Notes under the pieces: generated by a model
Seen by the model: the letters and a program-made list of their open reading frames with translations, nothing else
Database searches by the model: none
Told to the model about the DNA's origin: nothing
Program-made: the position numbers and the translations under genes
Assembly: GCA_021735685.1 (NCBI GenBank)
Contig: JAIPGN010000001.1
Coordinates: forward strand, 15,994-79,993
Direction: 5' to 3'
Length of the DNA: 64,000 nt
Origin: Patescibacteria group bacterium
Lineage (GTDB): Bacteria > Patescibacteriota > Patescibacteriia > UBA2591 > UBA6264
Part shown: positions 6 through 17,381 of the stretch, piece after piece
Layout of the letters: each line of letters opens with the position of its first letter
How positions within the stretch are numbered: position 1 is the first letter of the stretch

Positions 6-590
6 TTATATTTTTAAAAATTCTTTAACTTTTTCAATTATTTGCTTTTTTAATTCTTCTAAACTTATCTGATTATTTTCAATAATCAAATCGTAAATAC
101 TTTTGTCGTTTAAATCAATTTGATACAACTTTTCATACCTTTGAGCATCTCTCTCGTCCCTATTTTTAACTTTCTGAGCAGCCTCTGATGAAGTTAATTC
201 ATCTCTAGAAGCGACTCTCTCTTCACGAATTTTTTGCTCAGCTTCTACAAAAATTTTGCAATCTGCCCACTGACCAGCTACCCAGGCAGAAAGTCTTCCC
301 ACTACTACACATTCTCCTTTCTGGACATAATCTAAAGTCATCTTGTCAATTTGATAATCAATTTCTGCTGGCAAAGAATTTGAGACTTGATCTAAAGGCA
401 AATTCTTTTCCTGAGCATATTCTCGAAAAAGATCGCCAGCGTTAATTAAACGTAAATTAAAAAATCTAGCTATTTCTTTAGCTACAGTACTTTTTCCACT
501 TCCAGCCAAACCAGAAACCGTAATAGTTAATCCCTTTTTTTTCGATGACAAATTTTCGTCTTCAGCCAAAAGCTTAAGATAAGTCTTCAT
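6..590 (-). CDS. cmk: cytidylate kinase, archaeal-type (Cytidylate_kin2 family)
   Basis: ORF track 194 aa. P-loop GLAGSGKST near the N-terminus, and the overall motif pattern (…GDLFR…, VVVGRL…, …RDERD…YDLII) matches short archaeal-type CMP kinases. Confidence 0.55.
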   Translation of the reverse strand: MKTYLKLLAEDENLSSKKKGLTITVSGLAGSGKSTVAKEIARFFNLRLINAGDLFREYAQEKNLPLDQVSNSLPAEIDYQIDKMTLDYVQKGECVVVGRLSAWVAGQWADCKIFVEAEQKIREERVASRDELTSSEAAQKVKNRDERDAQRYEKLYQIDLNDKSIYDLIIENNQISLEELKKQIIEKVKEFLKI

Positions 591-1344: not shown

Positions 1345-2890
1345 AAACTTTTTTTAAAAATTCAAAAACATCTTTTTTACTCTTCAGCTTACCATTTAAT
1401 TGTTCTTCTCTTACTAAACTTAATAACTTCCCTATTTGCGGGCCGGGAGAAAGATTGAATTCTTTTATTAATTCGTGACCATTGACTAAAGGGGCGGGTA
1501 ATTTTTGTTCATTTTTTTTCTGATATTTTTTGGCTCGCAAGGAATTAATCCGATCCAACATTTTATAAAAATCAGTAAAATTTGGTTGACCAGAAGGAGG
1601 AACTGTGGCTGAAATATCTAGAAAGGATAATTTTAACAAATCTAAACCTGGTTTCTGTGGATTAAAAAAGTACTTTTCTATAGTAGAAGCCTTCATGTCT
1701 TCAATGCGTCCTTGAGAAAAAAGCATATGGTGATCAATAAGCCAAACCACGTTATCTATATTAATTCCTAATTTCGGCGGACTAGATAATTTCAAGCGCT
1801 GACAAATTTTTTCGGCCATTTCTCCACCGCGCACATCATGTTCGTTAAAACGAAGACGGTCAACATGGTCTTGAGCTGGGGTCTGAATAGTATAGGGTTT
1901 TCCTATATCATGAAAAATAACAGATAAAATTAATTGTAAAGAAAATTTTCGTGTTTTAAATTCTCGAAAAAAAGAAGGGGAATATAAATTTTTTAAAGCT
2001 AAACGAGTGTGAACCCAAACGTCTCCTTCAGAATGCCAATTCTGAGGTTGAGGACAGCCCTTCATTTTTAATATCTCAGGCATTAATTTTTGAAAAGCTC
2101 CACTTTGATCATAAAGATCAAAAGCTCTTAAGGGATGAGCCAAAAAAGCGGATAAAAATTCTTTAGCAATTACTTCATAAGGAACAGTTTGCCTTTTTGA
2201 AGTAAAAAGACAAGGAATATTCTTTTTAATCGCTTGCCAAGTTTCTCTTTCTATTTTCCACTTTGGATTAACCTTGTTACAACTTAACTGACAAACAAAT
2301 CTAATTCCTCGCAAAAGACGAGAATAATCTTCGGCAAATCTTTTCTCAGGTTGACCCACGCTTTTAATAACTTTGGCTTTTAGATCTTTCTGTCCCTGAT
2401 AAGGATCAATTAGAATAAATTTTTTTAAAATTCCAAAATTTAATTCTACGGCCATGCTATTTACCGTAAAATCACGACGACTTAAATCTTCTTCAATTGG
2501 CAATTGAGAGTCGTATTGAGCTTCCACATCTCGATAACCTCCAGTTTCAAAACTAAAATCTTGACGAGGAAGAGCGAAATCGATCTCTGAAAAAAAAGCT
2601 TGCTTAAAAGGAGTAAATTTAAGAACACCAAAGTTTTGTCCCACTAAATTAACTTTTCCGTGCAAAGATAAAAAATTTTCTAACTGCTTTAAAGAAAGAT
2701 TACGTACCACAAAATCATAATCTTGTGTGGGAACAGATAAAAAAAGATCTCGCACTGCTCCTCCTACTAAATAAATTTGAGCAGAAGGATATTCTTTTTT
2801 TAATTTTCTTAAAAAAAAGAAACTTTTTTTTCTAAACAAAAGTTTCAATTTAAAAAAAAGAAAAAATTTATTTTTAAAAAACGGAAACAT
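1322..2890 (-). CDS. cca: CCA-adding tRNA nucleotidyltransferase (Pol-beta head + HD domain)
   Basis: 522 aa. Nucleotidyltransferase motif LVGGAVRDLFL, and a C-terminal HD motif (FHDIGKP). Confidence 0.7.
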   Translation of the reverse strand: MFPFFKNKFFLFFKLKLLFRKKSFFFLRKLKKEYPSAQIYLVGGAVRDLFLSVPTQDYDFVVRNLSLKQLENFLSLHGKVNLVGQNFGVLKFTPFKQAFFSEIDFALPRQDFSFETGGYRDVEAQYDSQLPIEEDLSRRDFTVNSMAVELNFGILKKFILIDPYQGQKDLKAKVIKSVGQPEKRFAEDYSRLLRGIRFVCQLSCNKVNPKWKIERETWQAIKKNIPCLFTSKRQTVPYEVIAKEFLSAFLAHPLRAFDLYDQSGAFQKLMPEILKMKGCPQPQNWHSEGDVWVHTRLALKNLYSPSFFREFKTRKFSLQLILSVIFHDIGKPYTIQTPAQDHVDRLRFNEHDVRGGEMAEKICQRLKLSSPPKLGINIDNVVWLIDHHMLFSQGRIEDMKASTIEKYFFNPQKPGLDLLKLSFLDISATVPPSGQPNFTDFYKMLDRINSLRAKKYQKKNEQKLPAPLVNGHELIKEFNLSPGPQIGKLLSLVREEQLNGKLKSKKDVFEFLKKVYASWRKD

Positions 2891-2952
2891 CTAAAAATTT
2901 TAATTATTTAATTGGGGTCAGACCTTAAACTTACCCTTTCTTTTACTAAGAG

Positions 2953-3024
2953 TGGGCCCGGAAGGAATTGAACCTTCGACCTCTTCGATGTCAACGAAGC
3001 GTTCTACCACTGAACCACGAGCCC
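2953..3024 (-). tRNA. tRNA-Val (anticodon GAC)
   Basis: Reverse complement folds as a cloverleaf: acceptor GGGCTCG/CGGGCCC, D-arm TGGTTCAGTGGTAGAACG, anticodon stem CTTCG/CGAAG with loop TTGACAT, T-arm GGTTCAATTCC. CCA is not encoded. Confidence 0.8.
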
Positions 3025-3066
3025 TCAAGAAATAAAATTTTTTCTTAGTTAAACCAAAACCCAAAA

Positions 3067-3103
3067 ATGTCAACGAAGCGTTCTACCACTGAACCACGAG
3101 CCC
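3067..3103 (-). pseudogene. truncated copy of the tRNA-Val 5' half (nt 1-37/38), located 42 nt upstream of the intact gene
   Basis: 37 nt (atgtcaac...cacgagccc) identical to the 5' half of the adjacent tRNA-Val. Identity stops at the 3' side of the anticodon loop. Confidence 0.7.
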
Positions 3104-3232
3104 ACATCATTAAAATCTAAAGCCTAAATTCTAAACCTAAATAAGCCAAGATATCAATTAACCGCATTCTGGAATGGTTTAATGACGTACTTAAATAAAT
3201 GATTCTACTTGAACTTATTTTATCAAAAAATT

Positions 3233-3751
3233 TTAAATTTTGCCAGTGTTCACTGGTGTTTGATGCTCAAAAACAGCTAATTGATTAAATCCCATCTGAA
3301 ATTTTTTAAATTTTTTAACAACAAAACCTGTTTTTTCCGCCAAATCATAGATTTCTTTTTTGCTCCAATAATGTTTGTGTTCGGCAATATTTTTCTTATC
3401 CACAATGCCAAGAAATGCCCAAAATTCTAAAACAGGTTTTGCTATTTTGGTAGGCGTTGTCAAAAAGATTCTTCCATTTTTATTCAATATTTTCTTAAAT
3501 TTGCGAAATATTTTAAACACTTCTTTAGTTTCTATATGCTCTATTGTCGCCAAACTTACGATTGTATCAAAAAAGGCATTCTCCGTAATAAAACGACTAT
3601 GATTGACAAAAAAATATTTGCCGATGACTAATTTTTCTAATTCTCCTTTGTTTCCACCAAAATCTAAAACCTTGCCAACAAGATATGGCCTGGCCATCCT
3701 AAAACGATAATTTTGTAAAAATTTTTCTAAAAACATTGAGCTGTCAATCAT
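3233..3751 (-). CDS. class I SAM-dependent methyltransferase
   Basis: 172 aa. Glycine-rich SAM motif VLDFGGNKG and Methyltransf_11/23-like downstream blocks (…RIFLTTP…). Confidence 0.55.
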   Translation of the reverse strand: MIDSSMFLEKFLQNYRFRMARPYLVGKVLDFGGNKGELEKLVIGKYFFVNHSRFITENAFFDTIVSLATIEHIETKEVFKIFRKFKKILNKNGRIFLTTPTKIAKPVLEFWAFLGIVDKKNIAEHKHYWSKKEIYDLAEKTGFVVKKFKKFQMGFNQLAVFEHQTPVNTGKI

Positions 3752-3817
3752 GTAATCATTTTAAAAATTGACAATTTGCATAATTTATAATTTTTTCGAT
3801 AAAGTTTTAACCTCACC

Positions 3818-4390
3818 CTATTTAATAAAATTTTTCCACATTTGACTTGCCCGTGGCTTTGTGTCGCCAACATATTTACTTCCTATTTCTCTTGAATACG
3901 GCTTTTGGCACTCTGATGACAACTCTTCAAAGGCCATTTGCGCGATTGGCATTTTATAATAAAGCAAAATAGGCATATTTGCTGTGTTATGAAGCTCAAG
4001 CGTCATTTTTAGAGAATTGCCTGGATCAAGAAAGCCAGCAGTAACATGAATGAGCATGCCCATTCGGCCCACCGAACTTTTCCCCTCTAATCTACCAACA
4101 TATCTTGAAGAAACGCCAGTTATTTCATAAATTAACCCAAGAGCAAATTCTCCAGGGTGAAGCACAAATGGTTGCTTATTATCAATCATAAATTCCTTCA
4201 TCATGCCGTCCATGGGCTTTTTGGGATCAATGACATAGTTTGATTTAGTGTCAAAAATCAAAAAATGTTTATCCAAGTGTAAATCTACTGACGCTGGCTG
4301 TAAATATCTTTCGTCAAAAGGTTCTATGGTTATGTCACCGCGATTAATCGCTTCTTTAATATTTTTATCAGATAAAATCATAAAAATCAA
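3818..4390 (-). CDS. dcd: dCTP deaminase
   Basis: 190 aa. dUTPase/dCTP deaminase fold motifs (SVDLHL…, …GRLEGKSSVGRMG…, …AGFLDPG…). Confidence 0.8.
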   Translation of the reverse strand: MIFMILSDKNIKEAINRGDITIEPFDERYLQPASVDLHLDKHFLIFDTKSNYVIDPKKPMDGMMKEFMIDNKQPFVLHPGEFALGLIYEITGVSSRYVGRLEGKSSVGRMGMLIHVTAGFLDPGNSLKMTLELHNTANMPILLYYKMPIAQMAFEELSSECQKPYSREIGSKYVGDTKPRASQMWKNFIK

Positions 4391-4647
4391 AAATTTAAGA
4401 ATTGTTTCTGAGGGCTCGCTCCAACCCCTTATATTTTACCATTAATTTCGTTTTCTAATCTTTTAAAAAAATTTAAGAAAAAATTGAAATATAGTGAAAC
4501 TTCCATTAAGCTCCGATGTCATACAAAATTAAGATATAAGCTATCAATAAAACTAAAAATATCAATCTACTGATTTAAGTTTACCATGTTTTCTTAAAAA
4601 TATACAAAAATAAAGTTAAGAAATTACAGCATTAAAACTAAAAAACA

Positions 4648-4692
4648 TATTAAAAAGACCTGTTCGTGCGGAATAGGCCTTTAATAAATATA
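4648..4692 (-). terminator. putative Rho-independent terminator downstream of tRNA-Ile
   Basis: On the minus strand, directly after the tRNA 3' end: an imperfect hairpin (GGCCUAUUC…GAACAGGUC) followed by a UUUUUAAU run. Confidence 0.3.
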
Positions 4693-4694
4693 AA

Positions 4695-4769
4695 TGGTGG
4701 GCGTGGAAGGAGTCGAACCTTCGACCTCTTCTTTATCAGAGAAGCGTTCTACCGCTGAACCACACGCCC
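4695..4769 (-). tRNA. tRNA-Ile (anticodon GAT), CCA encoded
   Basis: Reverse complement: acceptor GGGCGTG/CACGCCC, anticodon stem CTTCT/AGAAG with loop CTGATAA, T-arm GGTTCGACTCC, then an encoded CCA. It sits directly downstream of the 16S rRNA, as in rRNA operons. Confidence 0.85.
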
Positions 4770-4809
4770 AAAAATTCGTTTAAAATTTGAAAGATAAAAA
4801 AATATTAAA

Positions 4810-4883
4810 ATCAGAGAAGCGTTCCCTGTCTATCGGTTTATCTGCCGAAGGCAGACAGGCAGGTACCGCTGAACCACACGCCC
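4810..4883 (-). pseudogene. truncated copy of the tRNA-Ile 5' half with a 39-nt hairpin insertion in the D-loop, 40 nt upstream of the intact gene
   Basis: Matches tRNA-Ile nt 1 to about 36 (GGGCGTGTGGTTCAGCGGTA…GAACGCTTCTCTGAT). It is interrupted by cctgcctgtctgccttcggcagataaaccgatagacagg, which contains the inverted repeat cctgtctgcc/ggcagacagg. Confidence 0.7.
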
Positions 4884-5084
4884 ATATCATTAAATTCTAA
4901 ATTCTAAAATCTAAAAGCACTAATCAAAATTATAACAAAAAAGAAAATAATTTCAATGCTTCTAACAAAAATAACCGGTTAAAACCGGTTATTTGCTCTA
5001 TAAATGAAAGACTTAGCAAAGACAGAGAAGTCGGCCATAGTTCTTATTCCTTGAGAATAAGAACTTATAATTTTTCCTCTAAAT

Positions 5085-6603
<1,519 letters not shown>

Positions 6604-6921
6604 AAAATAGAAAAATTTCTTTCAGTCAAAAAAGTTAAATAAATAACACCTTTGACCATTCAGTTAGATCACTGAATGCCCGGTCAAATGACCAAGTAAA
6701 GTTAAATTTTCTAAAAGATATTTGACCATAACTCTCTTTTAAAATAAAAGAATTTTATGGTTTTTTGATCATTAATAGATCAATTCTCTGTCTTCGCTGA
6801 ACCTTTCATTTATTTTTATTTAATTGTAAAGAACAAAAAAGCATTTTAACATGCTAACAAAACAATAATCTAACAAAAATTTATTTTTTATTCAAGTGTT
6901 CAAAAATCAAATTTTTAATTA

Positions 6922-8162: not shown

Positions 8163-8588
8163 TCAAGCTTTTTTTTCTTCAACCTTTTCTTCGGTTTTTT
8201 CTTCCGAAGATTCAACTTTCTCTTCTTTCTCTTCTTGCCCTTCTTCTTTCTTTAAGCTCTCCTTTTTTTCTTCTTGATCCTTAGAAGCCTTAGCCTCTTC
8301 TTGTTTCTTTTGAAATTTTTTCTGATTTACCTTGGTCACTTTTACCTTTTCCCCTTCCATAATTCCTTCTGAAATCAAAAGATTGCGCACTGAGCCAGTA
8401 GGCTGAGCGCCTTGAGATAACCAATATTTAATCCTTTCCTTTTTCAAAACAGTTTCTTTGCTCAAGGGATTACGAAAACCCAAATCCTCTAAAAAATTTC
8501 CTCGAGGATCTTTGGCTTTTTCTAAAACAATAATTCGATAAAATGGCTGTTTTTTTCTTCCTTTGCGGCTAAATTTAATAGTCAACAT
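8163..8588 (-). CDS. rpsP: 30S ribosomal protein bS16 with a long K/E-rich C-terminal extension
   Basis: The N-terminal 80 aa are typical S16 (MLTIKFSRKGRKKQPFYRIIV…). The C-terminal about 60 aa is a low-complexity K/E tail. Confidence 0.85.
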   Translation of the reverse strand: MLTIKFSRKGRKKQPFYRIIVLEKAKDPRGNFLEDLGFRNPLSKETVLKKERIKYWLSQGAQPTGSVRNLLISEGIMEGEKVKVTKVNQKKFQKKQEEAKASKDQEEKKESLKKEEGQEEKEEKVESSEEKTEEKVEEKKA

Positions 8589-15158: not shown

Positions 15159-17381
15159 TTATTGATCATAAGCTCGCATAGTGGTTACATTCACTCCACC
15201 CAAAAAATTACGAGAATAAGCGTAAAATCGAGAAACTGGATCACCACTAGAATCAAAAATATTTATTTCTGGTTCCTTAAATTTATTGGGGGCAATAATA
15301 ATTTCGCTTCTCTTGTCTTGATCAAAATCAGCAGTTGCTAAATTTGCCCCCTGATAATAGTCTTTAGAATAAGACAAAAACTGCAATCTTAAAAGAAGAA
15401 GGCGAGAATCAAAAACCCTTACATAAGAAGAAGCTCTGGAGTCAACGCTACATATAATTTCACCAATTCCATCACCATCAACATCACCAACTGCTACTTG
15501 TACTCCGCCTAAAAAATTGCGATTAAAGGCAAAGAAATGAGAAAGAACGCCTCCTTGACTGTTAAAAATTCTTACATGCGGGCCTCCGCCAGCTCCTGCT
15601 CCAGTAATAATTTCTTTCCTTCCATTACCATTAATATCGCCTATCCCTAGATTAACCCTTCCTTGAAAATTTTTATTATAAGCCGGAAATTCTGCTTTTA
15701 CTTCTCCTTGCCAATTAAAAATTTTAATCAGAGAGTCTTGGTTAGGCCCAGGAGCGGTAATAATTTCATCTTGTCCATCGCCATCAACATCACCAACTGC
15801 TACTTGTACTCCGCCACGAAAATTCTCATCATAAGCGAAAAAACCACCCTGAGGTTCTCCGTTTAAATCAAAAATTCTTACATGCGGTCCTCCGCCAGCT
15901 CCTGCTCCCGTGACAATATAGTCTTTTCCTTCTCCCTTAATATCCCCAGCAGACACCTGAACTCCGCCACGAAAATTCTCGTCATAAGCAAAAAAACCAC
16001 CCAAAGAAAGACCGGCAGAATCAAAAATCCTTACATGAGGACCTCCGCCAGCTCCTGCTCCCGTGACAATATAATAAGACTGATCTAGTGTTCCCAATTG
16101 ACTATAAGCGTAATCAACGCTTCGATAAGCATTAATCCTCCCTTGTCCCAACTCTCCTTCCAAGCCTGGATTTAAATTATCAATGCCGTCAGCTTGACTA
16201 AAGATAAAGTCTTGAACCTGTTTTTGACTAAAAAGGGGATTAATGGACCAAATTAAAGCAGCTAATCCAGAAACCATAGGAGCAGCCAAGGAAGTTCCTG
16301 ACCAATAACCTCCATAATATTCTCGATAATCCTTGTCGCTGGAATTATAGGCAAGAGTTCCGTAAATTTTTGTCCCCGGAGCAGCAATATCAACACATTT
16401 TCGTCCGAAATCAGAAAAAAGAGCCTTGCGATCAGTATCATCAACAGCAGTTACGCCCACAATAAAATTATCGTCATCTTCTTGATCTAAACAAATAGGA
16501 TAATTAGGGGTTTTATTTAAATTTAAAGGTTGATTAACTGTTTCATTGCCGGCTGCAGCTACCACAATCACCCCTTGCCGCCAAGCTTCTTTAAGAGCCT
16601 CTGCCAGAAAAAAACTTTCATTGGTGCCCACAAAACTCAAATTAATAATTTTAGCTCCATTTTGCACTGCATAACGAACCGCTCTAATGACATTTTCCAC
16701 ACTGCCTGTACCTTGACTGTTCAAAACGCGTAAAGGCATAATTTTGCTTTTCCAAGCCACTCCAGCTATTCCTTGCTGATTATCACCTACAGCAGAAGCA
16801 ATTCCGGCCACTAAAGTTCCATGATGAATTCCTCCCTCGCCATAAGGTTCATCAAATCGGGGGCGAGGATTAGAGTTATAACGAATAAAGTCCCAGCCGT
16901 AAACGTCATCAATAAAACCATTATCATCATTATCTATTCCATCTCCAGGAATCTCTCCGGAATTATGCCAAATATTTTCTTGAAGATCGGGATGATCAAC
17001 ATCAACTCCCGTATCTAAAATAGCAATAACAATATCTTCACTACCACCTTTAGTAAAGTCCCAAGCTTGAGGGGCCTTAATCTGACTTAAATACCATTGA
17101 TTCCTGTAAAGTAAATCATCAGGGACAAAAGAGGCCTCAAAAGAATAATTTGGCTCAGCATATTCCACAAAAGGAAGAAAGGAAGCAATCTTACTTAAAG
17201 ATGAGCTTAAAAAAGCAGGACTAGATAAACGATAAATTTGTTCTCGCTCTTTTAGTCTAATCAAAACACCACTTTGCGCAGAGTCGGATCGCAAAAGAGG
17301 GAAAAACGAAAAAGAAAAAAGCAAAACTAGGCCAAAAAGAAAGCTCAGTAAAAATATTTTTTTTCTAAAAAACAAATTCAT
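15159..17381 (-). CDS. secreted S8 (subtilisin-family) peptidase with C-terminal FG-GAP-like repeat propeller
   Basis: 740 aa. Signal peptide, then catalytic triad motifs DTGVDVDHPDL, HGTLVAGIAS and GTSLAAPMVSGLAAL. Followed by about six repeats of GAGAGGGPHVRIFD…GGFFAY…NFRGGV. Confidence 0.8.
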   Translation of the reverse strand: MNLFFRKKIFLLSFLFGLVLLFSFSFFPLLRSDSAQSGVLIRLKEREQIYRLSSPAFLSSSLSKIASFLPFVEYAEPNYSFEASFVPDDLLYRNQWYLSQIKAPQAWDFTKGGSEDIVIAILDTGVDVDHPDLQENIWHNSGEIPGDGIDNDDNGFIDDVYGWDFIRYNSNPRPRFDEPYGEGGIHHGTLVAGIASAVGDNQQGIAGVAWKSKIMPLRVLNSQGTGSVENVIRAVRYAVQNGAKIINLSFVGTNESFFLAEALKEAWRQGVIVVAAAGNETVNQPLNLNKTPNYPICLDQEDDDNFIVGVTAVDDTDRKALFSDFGRKCVDIAAPGTKIYGTLAYNSSDKDYREYYGGYWSGTSLAAPMVSGLAALIWSINPLFSQKQVQDFIFSQADGIDNLNPGLEGELGQGRINAYRSVDYAYSQLGTLDQSYYIVTGAGAGGGPHVRIFDSAGLSLGGFFAYDENFRGGVQVSAGDIKGEGKDYIVTGAGAGGGPHVRIFDLNGEPQGGFFAYDENFRGGVQVAVGDVDGDGQDEIITAPGPNQDSLIKIFNWQGEVKAEFPAYNKNFQGRVNLGIGDINGNGRKEIITGAGAGGGPHVRIFNSQGGVLSHFFAFNRNFLGGVQVAVGDVDGDGIGEIICSVDSRASSYVRVFDSRLLLLRLQFLSYSKDYYQGANLATADFDQDKRSEIIIAPNKFKEPEINIFDSSGDPVSRFYAYSRNFLGGVNVTTMRAYDQ
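15560..16090. repeat. intragenic tandem DNA repeats encoding the FG-GAP-like repeats of the S8 peptidase
   Basis: Near-identical segments of about 150 nt, e.g. ggacctccgccagctcctgctcc…, recur at least three times (about 15578, 15884 and 16040). Confidence 0.6.

Follow-up and report, generated by a model that had tools for sequence, protein, structure and literature searches.

The closest analogues of the loci described here are the free-standing GIY-YIG homing endonucleases of phage tRNA clusters, and an archaeal element that combines a tRNA-Thr fragment with a recombinase. The phage nuclease SegB cleaves within a tRNA gene cluster. This GIY-YIG enzyme is reported to promote segmental amplification of a tRNA region (PMC13096335).

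Here we describe two tRNA loci in a 64-kb chromosome segment (hereafter the window; 34% GC) of a bacterium of the Patescibacteria, or Candidate Phyla Radiation (CPR). At one of them the gene for tRNA-Ile is preceded by a copy of its own 5′ half, which a hairpin insert divides; at the other, tRNA-Val is preceded by a related copy of its 5′ half. We give slightly less than an even chance to the reading that both loci are nuclease-free relics of a recurring architecture, in which a GC hairpin interrupts a 5′ piece of a tRNA, a GIY-YIG gene of ~80 aa or a short spacer follows, and then come an intact tRNA and, sometimes, a 3′ piece. The Ile locus (nt 1-20, hairpin, nt 21-35, 40 nt, intact tRNA) has the anatomy of the nuclease-bearing loci minus the open reading frame (ORF). 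It would itself be a relic of modest importance, belonging to an apparently undescribed, widespread architecture; in the literature searched, no account was found of tRNA genes that are enclosed by their own pseudo-halves and accompanied by minimal GIY-YIG genes and GC hairpins.

A divided copy of the tRNA-Ile 5′ half

All window coordinates are given on the minus strand, and features are collected in Table 1. A first-pass annotation of this DNA had described a 5′-half copy at tRNA-Ile with a 39-nt hairpin in its D loop, and that description proved correct in every detail. The pseudo-half terminates at the last anticodon base. Folded alone, the insert reaches −14.9 kcal/mol (z = −3.6; 1 of 200 shuffles folds as well). 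Its core is TCTGCC-TTC-GGCAGA followed by TAAACC, and it is present once in the 64 kb. Exact k-mer mapping found no 5′-part copies of the other three window tRNAs, and no 3′ pseudo-piece downstream of Ile or Val, nor any extra upstream 5′ copy, rose above shuffles in the window.

The annotation had allowed that the copies might be missing from read-level data. They are not an assembly artefact, because independent Logan assemblies reproduce them: contig L100 (SRR12088349), which may derive from the same sample, equals window 5114-3074 at 100%, and the Val locus, with a variant of the pseudo-copy, recurs in contigs of three further runs (L101-L103).

Partial tRNA copies are a classical signature of integrated elements (PMC9897764), and an archaeal 5′ fragment with a recombinase-bearing element is known (PMC3293823). 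The copies could thus be attachment-site (att) remnants of an island or prophage that an integrase had inserted into the tRNA genes and that was later excised, in line with the att-like core suggested by the first-pass annotation. We consider this very improbable. The window copies are 5′ parts (nt 1-35 and 1-37) and lie upstream, with none 3′ or downstream; the distance from copy to gene is only 40-43 nt; and no integrase is found nearby, where the neighbouring ORFs are dcd, a methyltransferase gene and the CCA enzyme gene. Moreover, excision restores a single site and leaves no duplication. Split or permuted tRNA genes were also rejected, as intact tRNA-Ile and tRNA-Val are both present (75.3 and 72.6 bits).

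A further structure was seen inside the Ile unit. The 3′ end of the insert pairs with nt 21-33 of the pseudo-half (CAGGGAACGCTTCTCTG; 4828-4812), a T-rich tract follows, and a scanner rated the arrangement terminator-like. This pairing is not kept in the Val unit of L101.

Related units at tRNA-Ile and tRNA-Val

The two pseudo-halves share more than their position. At up to 3 mismatches, the flank TTTAGAATTTAGAATTTAATGAT occurs in the 64 kb only at 4908-4886 and 3128-3106, against an expectation of 0.00 in 100 dinucleotide shuffles, and the Ile and Val leaders align to each other with z = 5.5. The similarity of the flanks, which the first-pass annotation had noticed and proposed to hold against a shuffled background, is therefore non-random. 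So is the recurrence at two tRNAs, which had been taken to indicate a mechanism and not chance: the flank is significant, and a homologous hairpin insert is common to both units.

That insert became visible at the Val locus, the only one covered by the comparison with sister strains. Contigs L101-L103 are 98.5-99.5% identical to the window, and their Val pseudo-half carries a 60-nt hairpin insert at the D-loop position that the insert occupies in the window Ile copy. Both ends match the window Ile insert (~36 of 39 positions), and the middle is an internal 20-nt duplication. The L101-L103 Val pseudo-half also has 3 mismatches, confined to nt 6-20, as against 9 substitutions per 1641 nt elsewhere. 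Two inner-stem substitutions separate the window and L101 hairpins; in both, pairing is kept as G-U and in the tRNA-sense strand only.

By these alignments the Ile and Val pseudo-halves are paralogous units, each consisting of a heptamer leader of ~30 nt, tRNA nt 1-35 or 1-37, and a hairpin at nt 20/21. The simplest reading is that the unit of leader, 5′ half and hairpin was duplicated between the two loci. The window strain, in which the Val copy is uninterrupted, has probably erased the Val hairpin and the mismatches by gene conversion from the adjacent intact gene.

The intact genes also resemble each other. In the window and in the relatives' loci L081-L099, tRNA-Ile(GAT) and tRNA-Val(GAC) are near-identical over nt 7-29 (one difference in the window) and identical over nt 39-55; where they diverge is chiefly the acceptor stem and the anticodon stem-loop. 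The alignment suggests that the neighbouring Ile and Val genes evolve in concert.

Small GIY-YIG genes and nested tRNA loci in the phylum

Partial tRNA copies were counted within 400 nt of 116 tRNAs in ~95 non-redundant Patescibacteria loci (1.4 Mb). Loci L001-L080, found via dcd, show no synteny with the tRNAs and serve only as part of this phylum-wide sample. The copies were strongly polar. On the same strand, 5′ parts upstream were represented by 19 segments (control 2.6) and 3′ parts downstream by 15 (control 1.0), with 0-3 in each of the remaining position and strand classes.

The sample contained seven GIY-YIG matches. Five directly neighbour a tRNA on their own strand, at no more than 120 nt; in the tRNA-Ala locus of L017, 0.5 kb further on, there is a sixth. 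In L059 (Asn) and L061 (Gln), the ORF (Pfam PF01541, E = 3e-15 and 2e-17, respectively) separates the pseudo-piece from the intact tRNA; in L045 and L017 it follows closely on the tRNA, and a 3′ pseudo-piece comes next. When the L045 protein served as database query, 104 homologues of ~80 aa were returned, mostly from Patescibacteria, and all six homologue contexts examined were tRNA-linked (L159, L161, L162, L164, L165 and L166). Five of them, at tRNA-Tyr or tRNA-Ser, share one order: tRNA nt 1 to 16..24, the palindrome CCCCGCC-NN-GGCGGGG, 7-12 nt of resumed tRNA homology, the GIY-YIG ORF and the intact tRNA. The layouts of L059 and L061 are similar. The nuclease consists of the catalytic domain only and has no DNA-binding domain; it weakly resembles intron endonucleases and has a weak, sub-threshold match to TIGR01453.

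The sixth context is in Draconibacterium halophilum (Bacteroidota; complete genome CP048409), so the architecture reaches beyond Patescibacteria. In this nested locus (L165 1057-1501), an inner intact tRNA-Pro(CGG) is followed by a GIY-YIG gene of 81 aa. Of the outer pieces, the 5′ one (CGGGATG) pairs with the 3′ one (CATCCCG), whereas the inner tRNA has CGGGGTG/CACCCCG. Since the outer pieces match each other and not the inner tRNA, the nesting is clear at this locus: the resident tRNA-Pro is divided by a segment that bears a different tRNA-Pro of its own and the GIY-YIG gene.

We provisionally define these loci as a nested tRNA/GIY-YIG cassette family. The window shares with it a same-strand 5′ pseudo-piece directly upstream of the tRNA and a GC hairpin in the D arm of that piece, with tRNA homology resuming afterwards; comparable D-arm hairpin loci are L159, L161, L162, L166, L059, L047, L017 and L088.

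At L059, a 574-aa ORF (2688-4412, plus strand), whose sequence by eye suggests a large serine recombinase, directly borders tRNA-Asn at its 3′ end, the two being on different strands. The GIY-YIG cassette lies on the 5′ side of the same tRNA, so two elements may target one tRNA gene.

GC hairpins in tRNA pseudo-pieces

Small GC hairpins interrupt many of the pseudo-pieces, at three places. Examples lie in the D arm in the window (Ile), L101 (Val), L088 (Ile), L047 (Ser), L059 (Asn) and L017 (Ala), in the T arm in L017 (Trp), L045 and L051 (Gly) and L051 (Ser), and in place of the anticodon arm in L034 and L045 (Gly), L017 (Ala) and L061 (Gln). The window insert belongs to what we call the hairpin-TAAAC family, defined by a 6-bp stem that begins with TC and ends with GA, followed by TAAAC. 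Its stems show compensatory changes (TCTGCC/GGCAGA, TCCGCC/GGCGGA, TCCCGC/GCGGGA and TCCCGA/TCGGGA). A hairpin-plus-motif script detected nine such elements in the 1.4 Mb of Patescibacteria loci, eight of them within tRNA pseudo-pieces and some adjoining GIY-YIG genes; a covariance model was dropped because MAFFT misaligned stems of unequal loop length. The copy in L083 lies 9 nt before a small zinc-ribbon ORF, outside any tRNA piece.

Two loci carry hairpin-bearing units in tandem. Upstream of tRNA-Ser(GCT) in L047 (1130-1560, minus strand) are 2-3 units, each made of nt 1-15, a long D-loop insert ending TCCCGC-CAGA-GCGGGA, and nt 16-25; within one of them, a stretch of N marks an assembly gap that the repeat has caused. 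In L017 (8436-8550, plus strand), tRNA-Trp is followed by two tandem 57-nt units that superficially look like a two-repeat mini-array; in each, the 5′ part of the T arm leads into a hairpin-TAAAC element, and the acceptor 3′ strand and a trailer of 10 nt close the unit.

The hairpin-TAAAC form resembles the repeat hairpin and 5′ handle of type I-E CRISPR (GCGGGGATAAACCG), which may be coincidence. We rejected a CRISPR-repeat reading of GGCAGATAAACCG, which is similar to the 3′ part of the type I-E repeat but is single-copy, forms no arrays and has no Rfam CRISPR-DR match at E up to 10; no cas gene was found. A scan of viral contigs for TCCGCC-N3-5-GGCGGATAAAC was also set aside, as all 54 matches fell in GC-rich coding sequence, mostly of one gene family, and are attributable to chance, with no relation to tRNAs. 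Searched against Rfam at permissive thresholds (E up to 10), the pseudo-halves and hairpins of the window region and six related loci remained unmatched.

States of the locus in close relatives

Scanning metagenomes for a pattern that covers the anticodon arms of tRNA-Ile and tRNA-Val yielded 19 Ile/Val loci (L081-L099). The 16S genes of the relatives compared are 98-99% identical among themselves and 95-96% identical to that of the window. The relatives sampled have the ancestral order, TrmD-16S-promoter-Ile-Val-CCA-RluA. In L081, L087, L089, L091 and L094, Ile and Val are adjacent, 55-250 nt apart, and the CCA enzyme gene follows.

The pseudo-pieces are patchily distributed. Loci L081, L086/87 and L094 have no extra tRNA pieces. 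L088 has only an Ile 5′ pseudo-half, with a different structured D-loop insert (~77 nt, z = −8.5), and in L089 the sole extra piece is a 3′ pseudo-half (nt 34-73), which lies downstream of Ile. L091 shows the nested state, with a pseudo-half on each side of the intact gene; the two halves have an overlap of 4 nt, located in the anticodon loop. A single insertion or duplication at the anticodon loop, followed by recombination between pseudo-half and matching half, could generate every one of these states.

The relatives also bear on a rival account, which we regard as rather unlikely but take seriously: that the leader and the tRNA 5′ half were duplicated locally in tandem by slippage or unequal Ile/Val recombination, with no nuclease or cassette, and that the hairpin is a later chance or REP-like (repetitive extragenic palindromic) insertion of a small palindrome into the dispensable copy. 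In L088 and L091, pseudo-half and gene are separated by a copy of the native leader, duplicated along with the 5′ half. This is the signature of plain tandem duplication, for which no foreign cassette is required, and so a tandem-duplication component is real. The stretches shared by Ile and Val (nt 7-29 and 39-55) would be substrates for unequal exchange, and the nuclease gene is found at no Ile/Val locus. Tandem duplication leaves unexplained that three separate states all have their breakpoints in the anticodon loop (5′ pseudo-halves end at nt 35-38, 3′ pseudo-halves start at nt 34-35), that L091 is nested and not tandem, that the D-loop-hairpin layout recurs at GIY-YIG loci of unrelated tRNAs, and that the hairpin family is largely confined to tRNA pseudo-pieces.

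Promoters and leader structure

The best promoter match of the Ile region lies in the spacer after 16S (Table 1), and a homologous TTGAAT-17-TATAAT stands at the matching position in L081, L087, L089, L091 and L094; promoter-like matches as such are no commoner in the region than in shuffles (10 vs 9.0). This promoter is predicted to drive the leader, the pseudo-half and tRNA-Ile as one transcript. Because it is conserved and sits upstream of both, the Ile heptamer motif and the pseudo-half fall inside the predicted transcript, and the Ile flank motif has no −35. Only tRNA-Ile follows 16S, without 23S or tRNA-Ala. The rRNA operon is unlinked by gene order, and the tRNA unit looks to be transcribed apart from 16S. 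The operon picture is corrected to a predicted one in which tRNA-Ile, 3′ of 16S, has its own conserved promoter and a pseudo-half in its precursor leader. Relatives keep, by direct reading, a spacer hairpin at the position equivalent to 4990-4971; a consensus terminator scanner made no call for the window hairpin.

Inserted DNA of ~1.75 kb cuts tRNA-Val off from the Ile spacer promoter. In the Val region, the best sigma-70-like match uses the first TTTAGAA heptamer as −10 (TAGAAT), and with the upstream TTGATA this heptamer plausibly forms a promoter. The first-pass annotation had read the shared flank as a possible TTTAGA/TAATGA promoter. Part of that idea survives at Val, where the first heptamer is a plausible −10; at Ile the predicted promoter lies further upstream, and TTTAGA/TAATGA is probably not the promoter. 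Comparing leaders 1 and 2 with the relatives' leaders, to tell which is native, gave no significant similarity.

In L087, L088, L089, L091 and L094, a conserved mini-copy of the tRNA 5′ end (aaatGGGCGTTTatGGGCGTGTGG) stands about 10 nt upstream of tRNA-Ile. It occurs even at loci without a pseudo-half and could pair with the 3′ acceptor strand.

A transcribed pseudo-half might act as a tRNA mimic in the precursor that regulates tRNA-Ile and tRNA-Val maturation, by competing for the 3′ acceptor strand or by recruiting a factor for processing or modification. With a promoter upstream, the unit is probably transcribed. In partition-function calculations, pairing of the pseudo 5′ strand to the 3′ acceptor strand has P = 0.96 at Ile, where it out-competes the true 5′ strand, and P = 0.55 at Val, and the G-U pairs retained in the tRNA-sense strand between L101 and the window fit an RNA role. 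Against this, the L101 Val pseudo-half does not compete (P = 0.005), a drop that coincides with its mismatch at nt 6, no Rfam family matches even at E up to 10, and folding of the whole unit is not unusual (z = −0.3 to −2.0). The unit is missing from most relatives with 98-99% identical 16S, and the hairpin is gained or lost between 99%-identical strains; this patchy distribution and strain-level turnover argue against an important function. A regulatory RNA leader is in our estimation improbable, and the regulated leader structure that the first-pass annotation had named as an option is disfavoured on the same grounds. The idea that the hairpin blocks acceptor-strand competition finds no support at Ile, where the value is P = 0.96 with and 0.92 without it. 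For the Ile feature we lean, tentatively and with only a little less than even confidence, towards a non-functional 5′ pseudo-half within a leader transcribed from the spacer promoter to the real gene.

Neighbouring features

The ~1.75 kb between Ile and Val in the window comprise the terminator, dcd, the methyltransferase gene, and the leader with the Val pseudo-half. The closest dcd homologues are all from Patescibacteria metagenome-assembled genomes (MAGs); taken from its 187-aa start, the dcd protein had an exact match only in L100. Downstream of tRNA-Val is a gene for the CCA-adding enzyme. Tandem Repeats Finder (TRF) reports a period-14 repeat at 3111-3142, within the Val copy of leader 1.

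Table 1. Coordinates of features in the window and at the loci compared with it
Locus	Feature	Position	Strand	Basis or remark
Window	16S rRNA gene	6606-5081	-	Rfam RF00177, 1461 bits, full length
Window	Hairpin AACCGGTTTTAACCGGTT then T-run, terminator-like, 16S-tRNA spacer	4990-4971	-	Read from sequence
Window	Predicted sigma-70-type promoter, Ile, TTGAAA-16-TATAAT, extended TG	4956-4929	-	11/12, best match in 2900-5100
Window	Leader 1, TTTAGAA-type heptamers and TTTAATGAT, immediately 5′ of Ile pseudo-half	4915-4884	-	23-mer search, alignment
Window	Pseudo-tRNA-Ile left block, nt 1-20, 100% identical to gene	4883-4864	-	Exact k-mer mapping
Window	39-nt GC-rich hairpin insert, D loop/D stem boundary	4863-4825	-	cctgcctgtctgccttcggcagataaaccgatagacagg
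Window	Pseudo-tRNA-Ile right block, nt 21-35, 100% identical to gene	4824-4810	-	Exact k-mer mapping
Window	Leader 2, 40-nt AT-rich spacer, pseudo-half to gene	4809-4770	-	No significant alignment to anything
Window	Intact tRNA-Ile(GAT), encoded CCA	4769-4695	-	ARAGORN and Rfam, 75.3 bits
Window	Terminator-like hairpin and T-run 3′ of tRNA-Ile	~4679-4652	-	By eye
Window	dcd (dCTP deaminase-like) and methyltransferase gene	4390-3233	-	Pfam
Window	Promoter-like TTGATA-18-TAGAAT	3157-3128	-	Consensus scan, 10/12
Window	Val copy of leader 1, TTTAGAA/TTTAGGC/TTTAGAT heptamers and TTTAATGAT	3142-3104	-	23-mer search, alignment
Window	Pseudo-tRNA-Val, nt 1-37, 100% identical to gene, uninterrupted in window strain	3103-3067	-	Exact k-mer mapping
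Window	Val pseudo-half/gene spacer, ~42 nt	3066-3025	-	Start ACATTTTTGGG resembles relatives' Ile-Val spacer (by eye)
Window	Intact tRNA-Val(GAC)	3024-2952	-	ARAGORN and Rfam, 72.6 bits
L091	5′ pseudo-half, nt 1-38	2782-2818
L091	Intact tRNA-Ile	2860-2931
L091	3′ pseudo-half, nt 35-73	3011-3049
Window	Hairpin-TAAAC element	4836-4856
L017	Hairpin-TAAAC elements	6641-6664, 8458-8477, 8513-8534
L045	Hairpin-TAAAC element	15604-15625
L051	Hairpin-TAAAC elements	6284-6303, 16288-16309
L083	Hairpin-TAAAC element	5772-5791
L159, L161, L162, L166	tRNA-Tyr			Palindrome in D loop
L164	tRNA-Ser			Palindrome replaces anticodon-stem 5′ strand

Origin of the loci

If the window loci are relics of the nested architecture, their history may be sketched as follows. 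A resident tRNA gene would have been broken or invaded at the anticodon loop, an incoming or duplicated segment would have supplied an intact tRNA, and the resident 5′ half would have stayed on its promoter. The 3′ remnant, with any nuclease gene, would then have been lost by recombination between the repeated tRNA segments. The unit would have been copied once within the genome, from Ile to Val or the reverse, and conversion by the adjacent intact gene would keep the pseudo-half identical and sometimes erase the hairpin, as at Val in the window strain. Recombination of the RecA type needs a minimal length of homology. The hairpin divides a direct repeat of 35-37 bp into blocks of at most 20 bp and may thereby slow recombinational loss; such an effect would explain why surviving pseudo-halves so often carry a hairpin. 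Alternatively, the loci may stem from DNA breaks made by such nucleases, by analogy with the segmental duplication that GIY-YIG cutting is reported to drive in phage (PMC13096335).

Several points weigh against descent from a nuclease-bearing cassette. With four GIY-YIG proteins as tblastn queries, no such gene or remnant was found in the 64-kb window or at the 19 Ile/Val loci of the relatives; the 40-43-nt spacers are too short and AT-rich for a test for nuclease remnants. The matching downstream 3′ pseudo-piece, present in L091, is absent from the window. The window hairpin is of the TAAAC type and not the CCCCGCC palindrome that precedes the ORFs, the relatedness of the two being judged by eye. 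The ~80-aa nucleases have only a catalytic domain and are at most putative tRNA-gene-specific enzymes, and an intact tRNA copy would recreate any target inside the tRNA. The native-leader spacers of L088 and L091, discussed above, point the same way.

A broader proposition is possible, if on balance doubtful: that the loci represent an undescribed class of selfish elements, widespread in Patescibacteria and present in Bacteroidota, in which a GIY-YIG gene travels with a whole or partial tRNA gene, homes into the cognate tRNA gene, breaks the resident up into dead 5′ and 3′ pieces and takes over its function, the GC hairpins of both kinds, CCCCGCC palindrome and hairpin-TAAAC, being part of the element. 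The hairpins could then act as anti-recombination or anti-cleavage inserts, or be non-autonomous derivatives mobilised in trans, and the presence or absence of the hairpin between 99%-identical strains would be explained by its being such a part.

Should this reading hold, a minimal parasite based on a nuclease repeatedly targets the tRNA genes of ultra-small bacteria and spares its host by bringing or regenerating an intact tRNA, a third way beside the logic of integrative elements and that of introns. It would explain many of the odd tRNA fragments that confuse the annotation of CPR genomes. It would also open a way into gene conversion and recombination in organisms whose repair systems are much reduced, and supply a candidate family of ~80-aa nucleases with possibly structure-specific or tRNA-gene-specific cleavage.

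Comparison with known systems

Each of the known systems shares some features with these loci. tRNA group I introns of Patescibacteria occur in the same phylum and interrupt the anticodon loop (position 35/36; PMC13011429). Such an intron splits one gene and is spliced out, whereas here an intact gene stands beside a duplicated half. We rejected a group I intron for the window: there is no match to Intron_gpI or any other Rfam family at E up to 10, 40 nt is too short, and the 5′ exon is duplicated. REP elements and miniature inverted-repeat transposable elements (MITEs) are likewise short, GC-rich imperfect palindromes with a conserved flanking pentanucleotide that vary between strains. In contrast to them, the insert has one copy in 64 kb (window only), its family members lie in tRNA pseudo-pieces and are not dispersed between genes, and no RAYT-type transposase was identified.

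The att duplications of integrative elements pair one intact with one partial direct tRNA copy on the same strand (PMC9897764). They normally duplicate 3′ parts, with 9-23 kb and an integrase in between, whereas here 5′ parts are duplicated, 40 nt apart and with an internal hairpin. Closer in form is tRNA-Thr of Caldiarchaeum subterraneum, where a 5′ fragment lies upstream of the intact gene, the population is heterogeneous and a mobile element has been proposed (PMC3293823). That element is archaeal, spans 1.8 kb, encodes a recombinase and is tied to intron gain; the present case is bacterial, with a 40-nt spacer and a link to a GIY-YIG family.

In T4/T6, a small GIY-YIG gene lies among tRNA genes, and the action of its product SegB is reported to be tied to duplication or amplification of the tRNA region (PMC13096335). 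The loci collected here likewise associate small GIY-YIG genes with duplicated tRNA pieces. Unlike SegB, the elements described here are chromosomal and their nuclease is a catalytic domain only, with the window itself lacking the gene; and here the tRNA is nested inside the pieces of a former copy, which GC hairpins interrupt.

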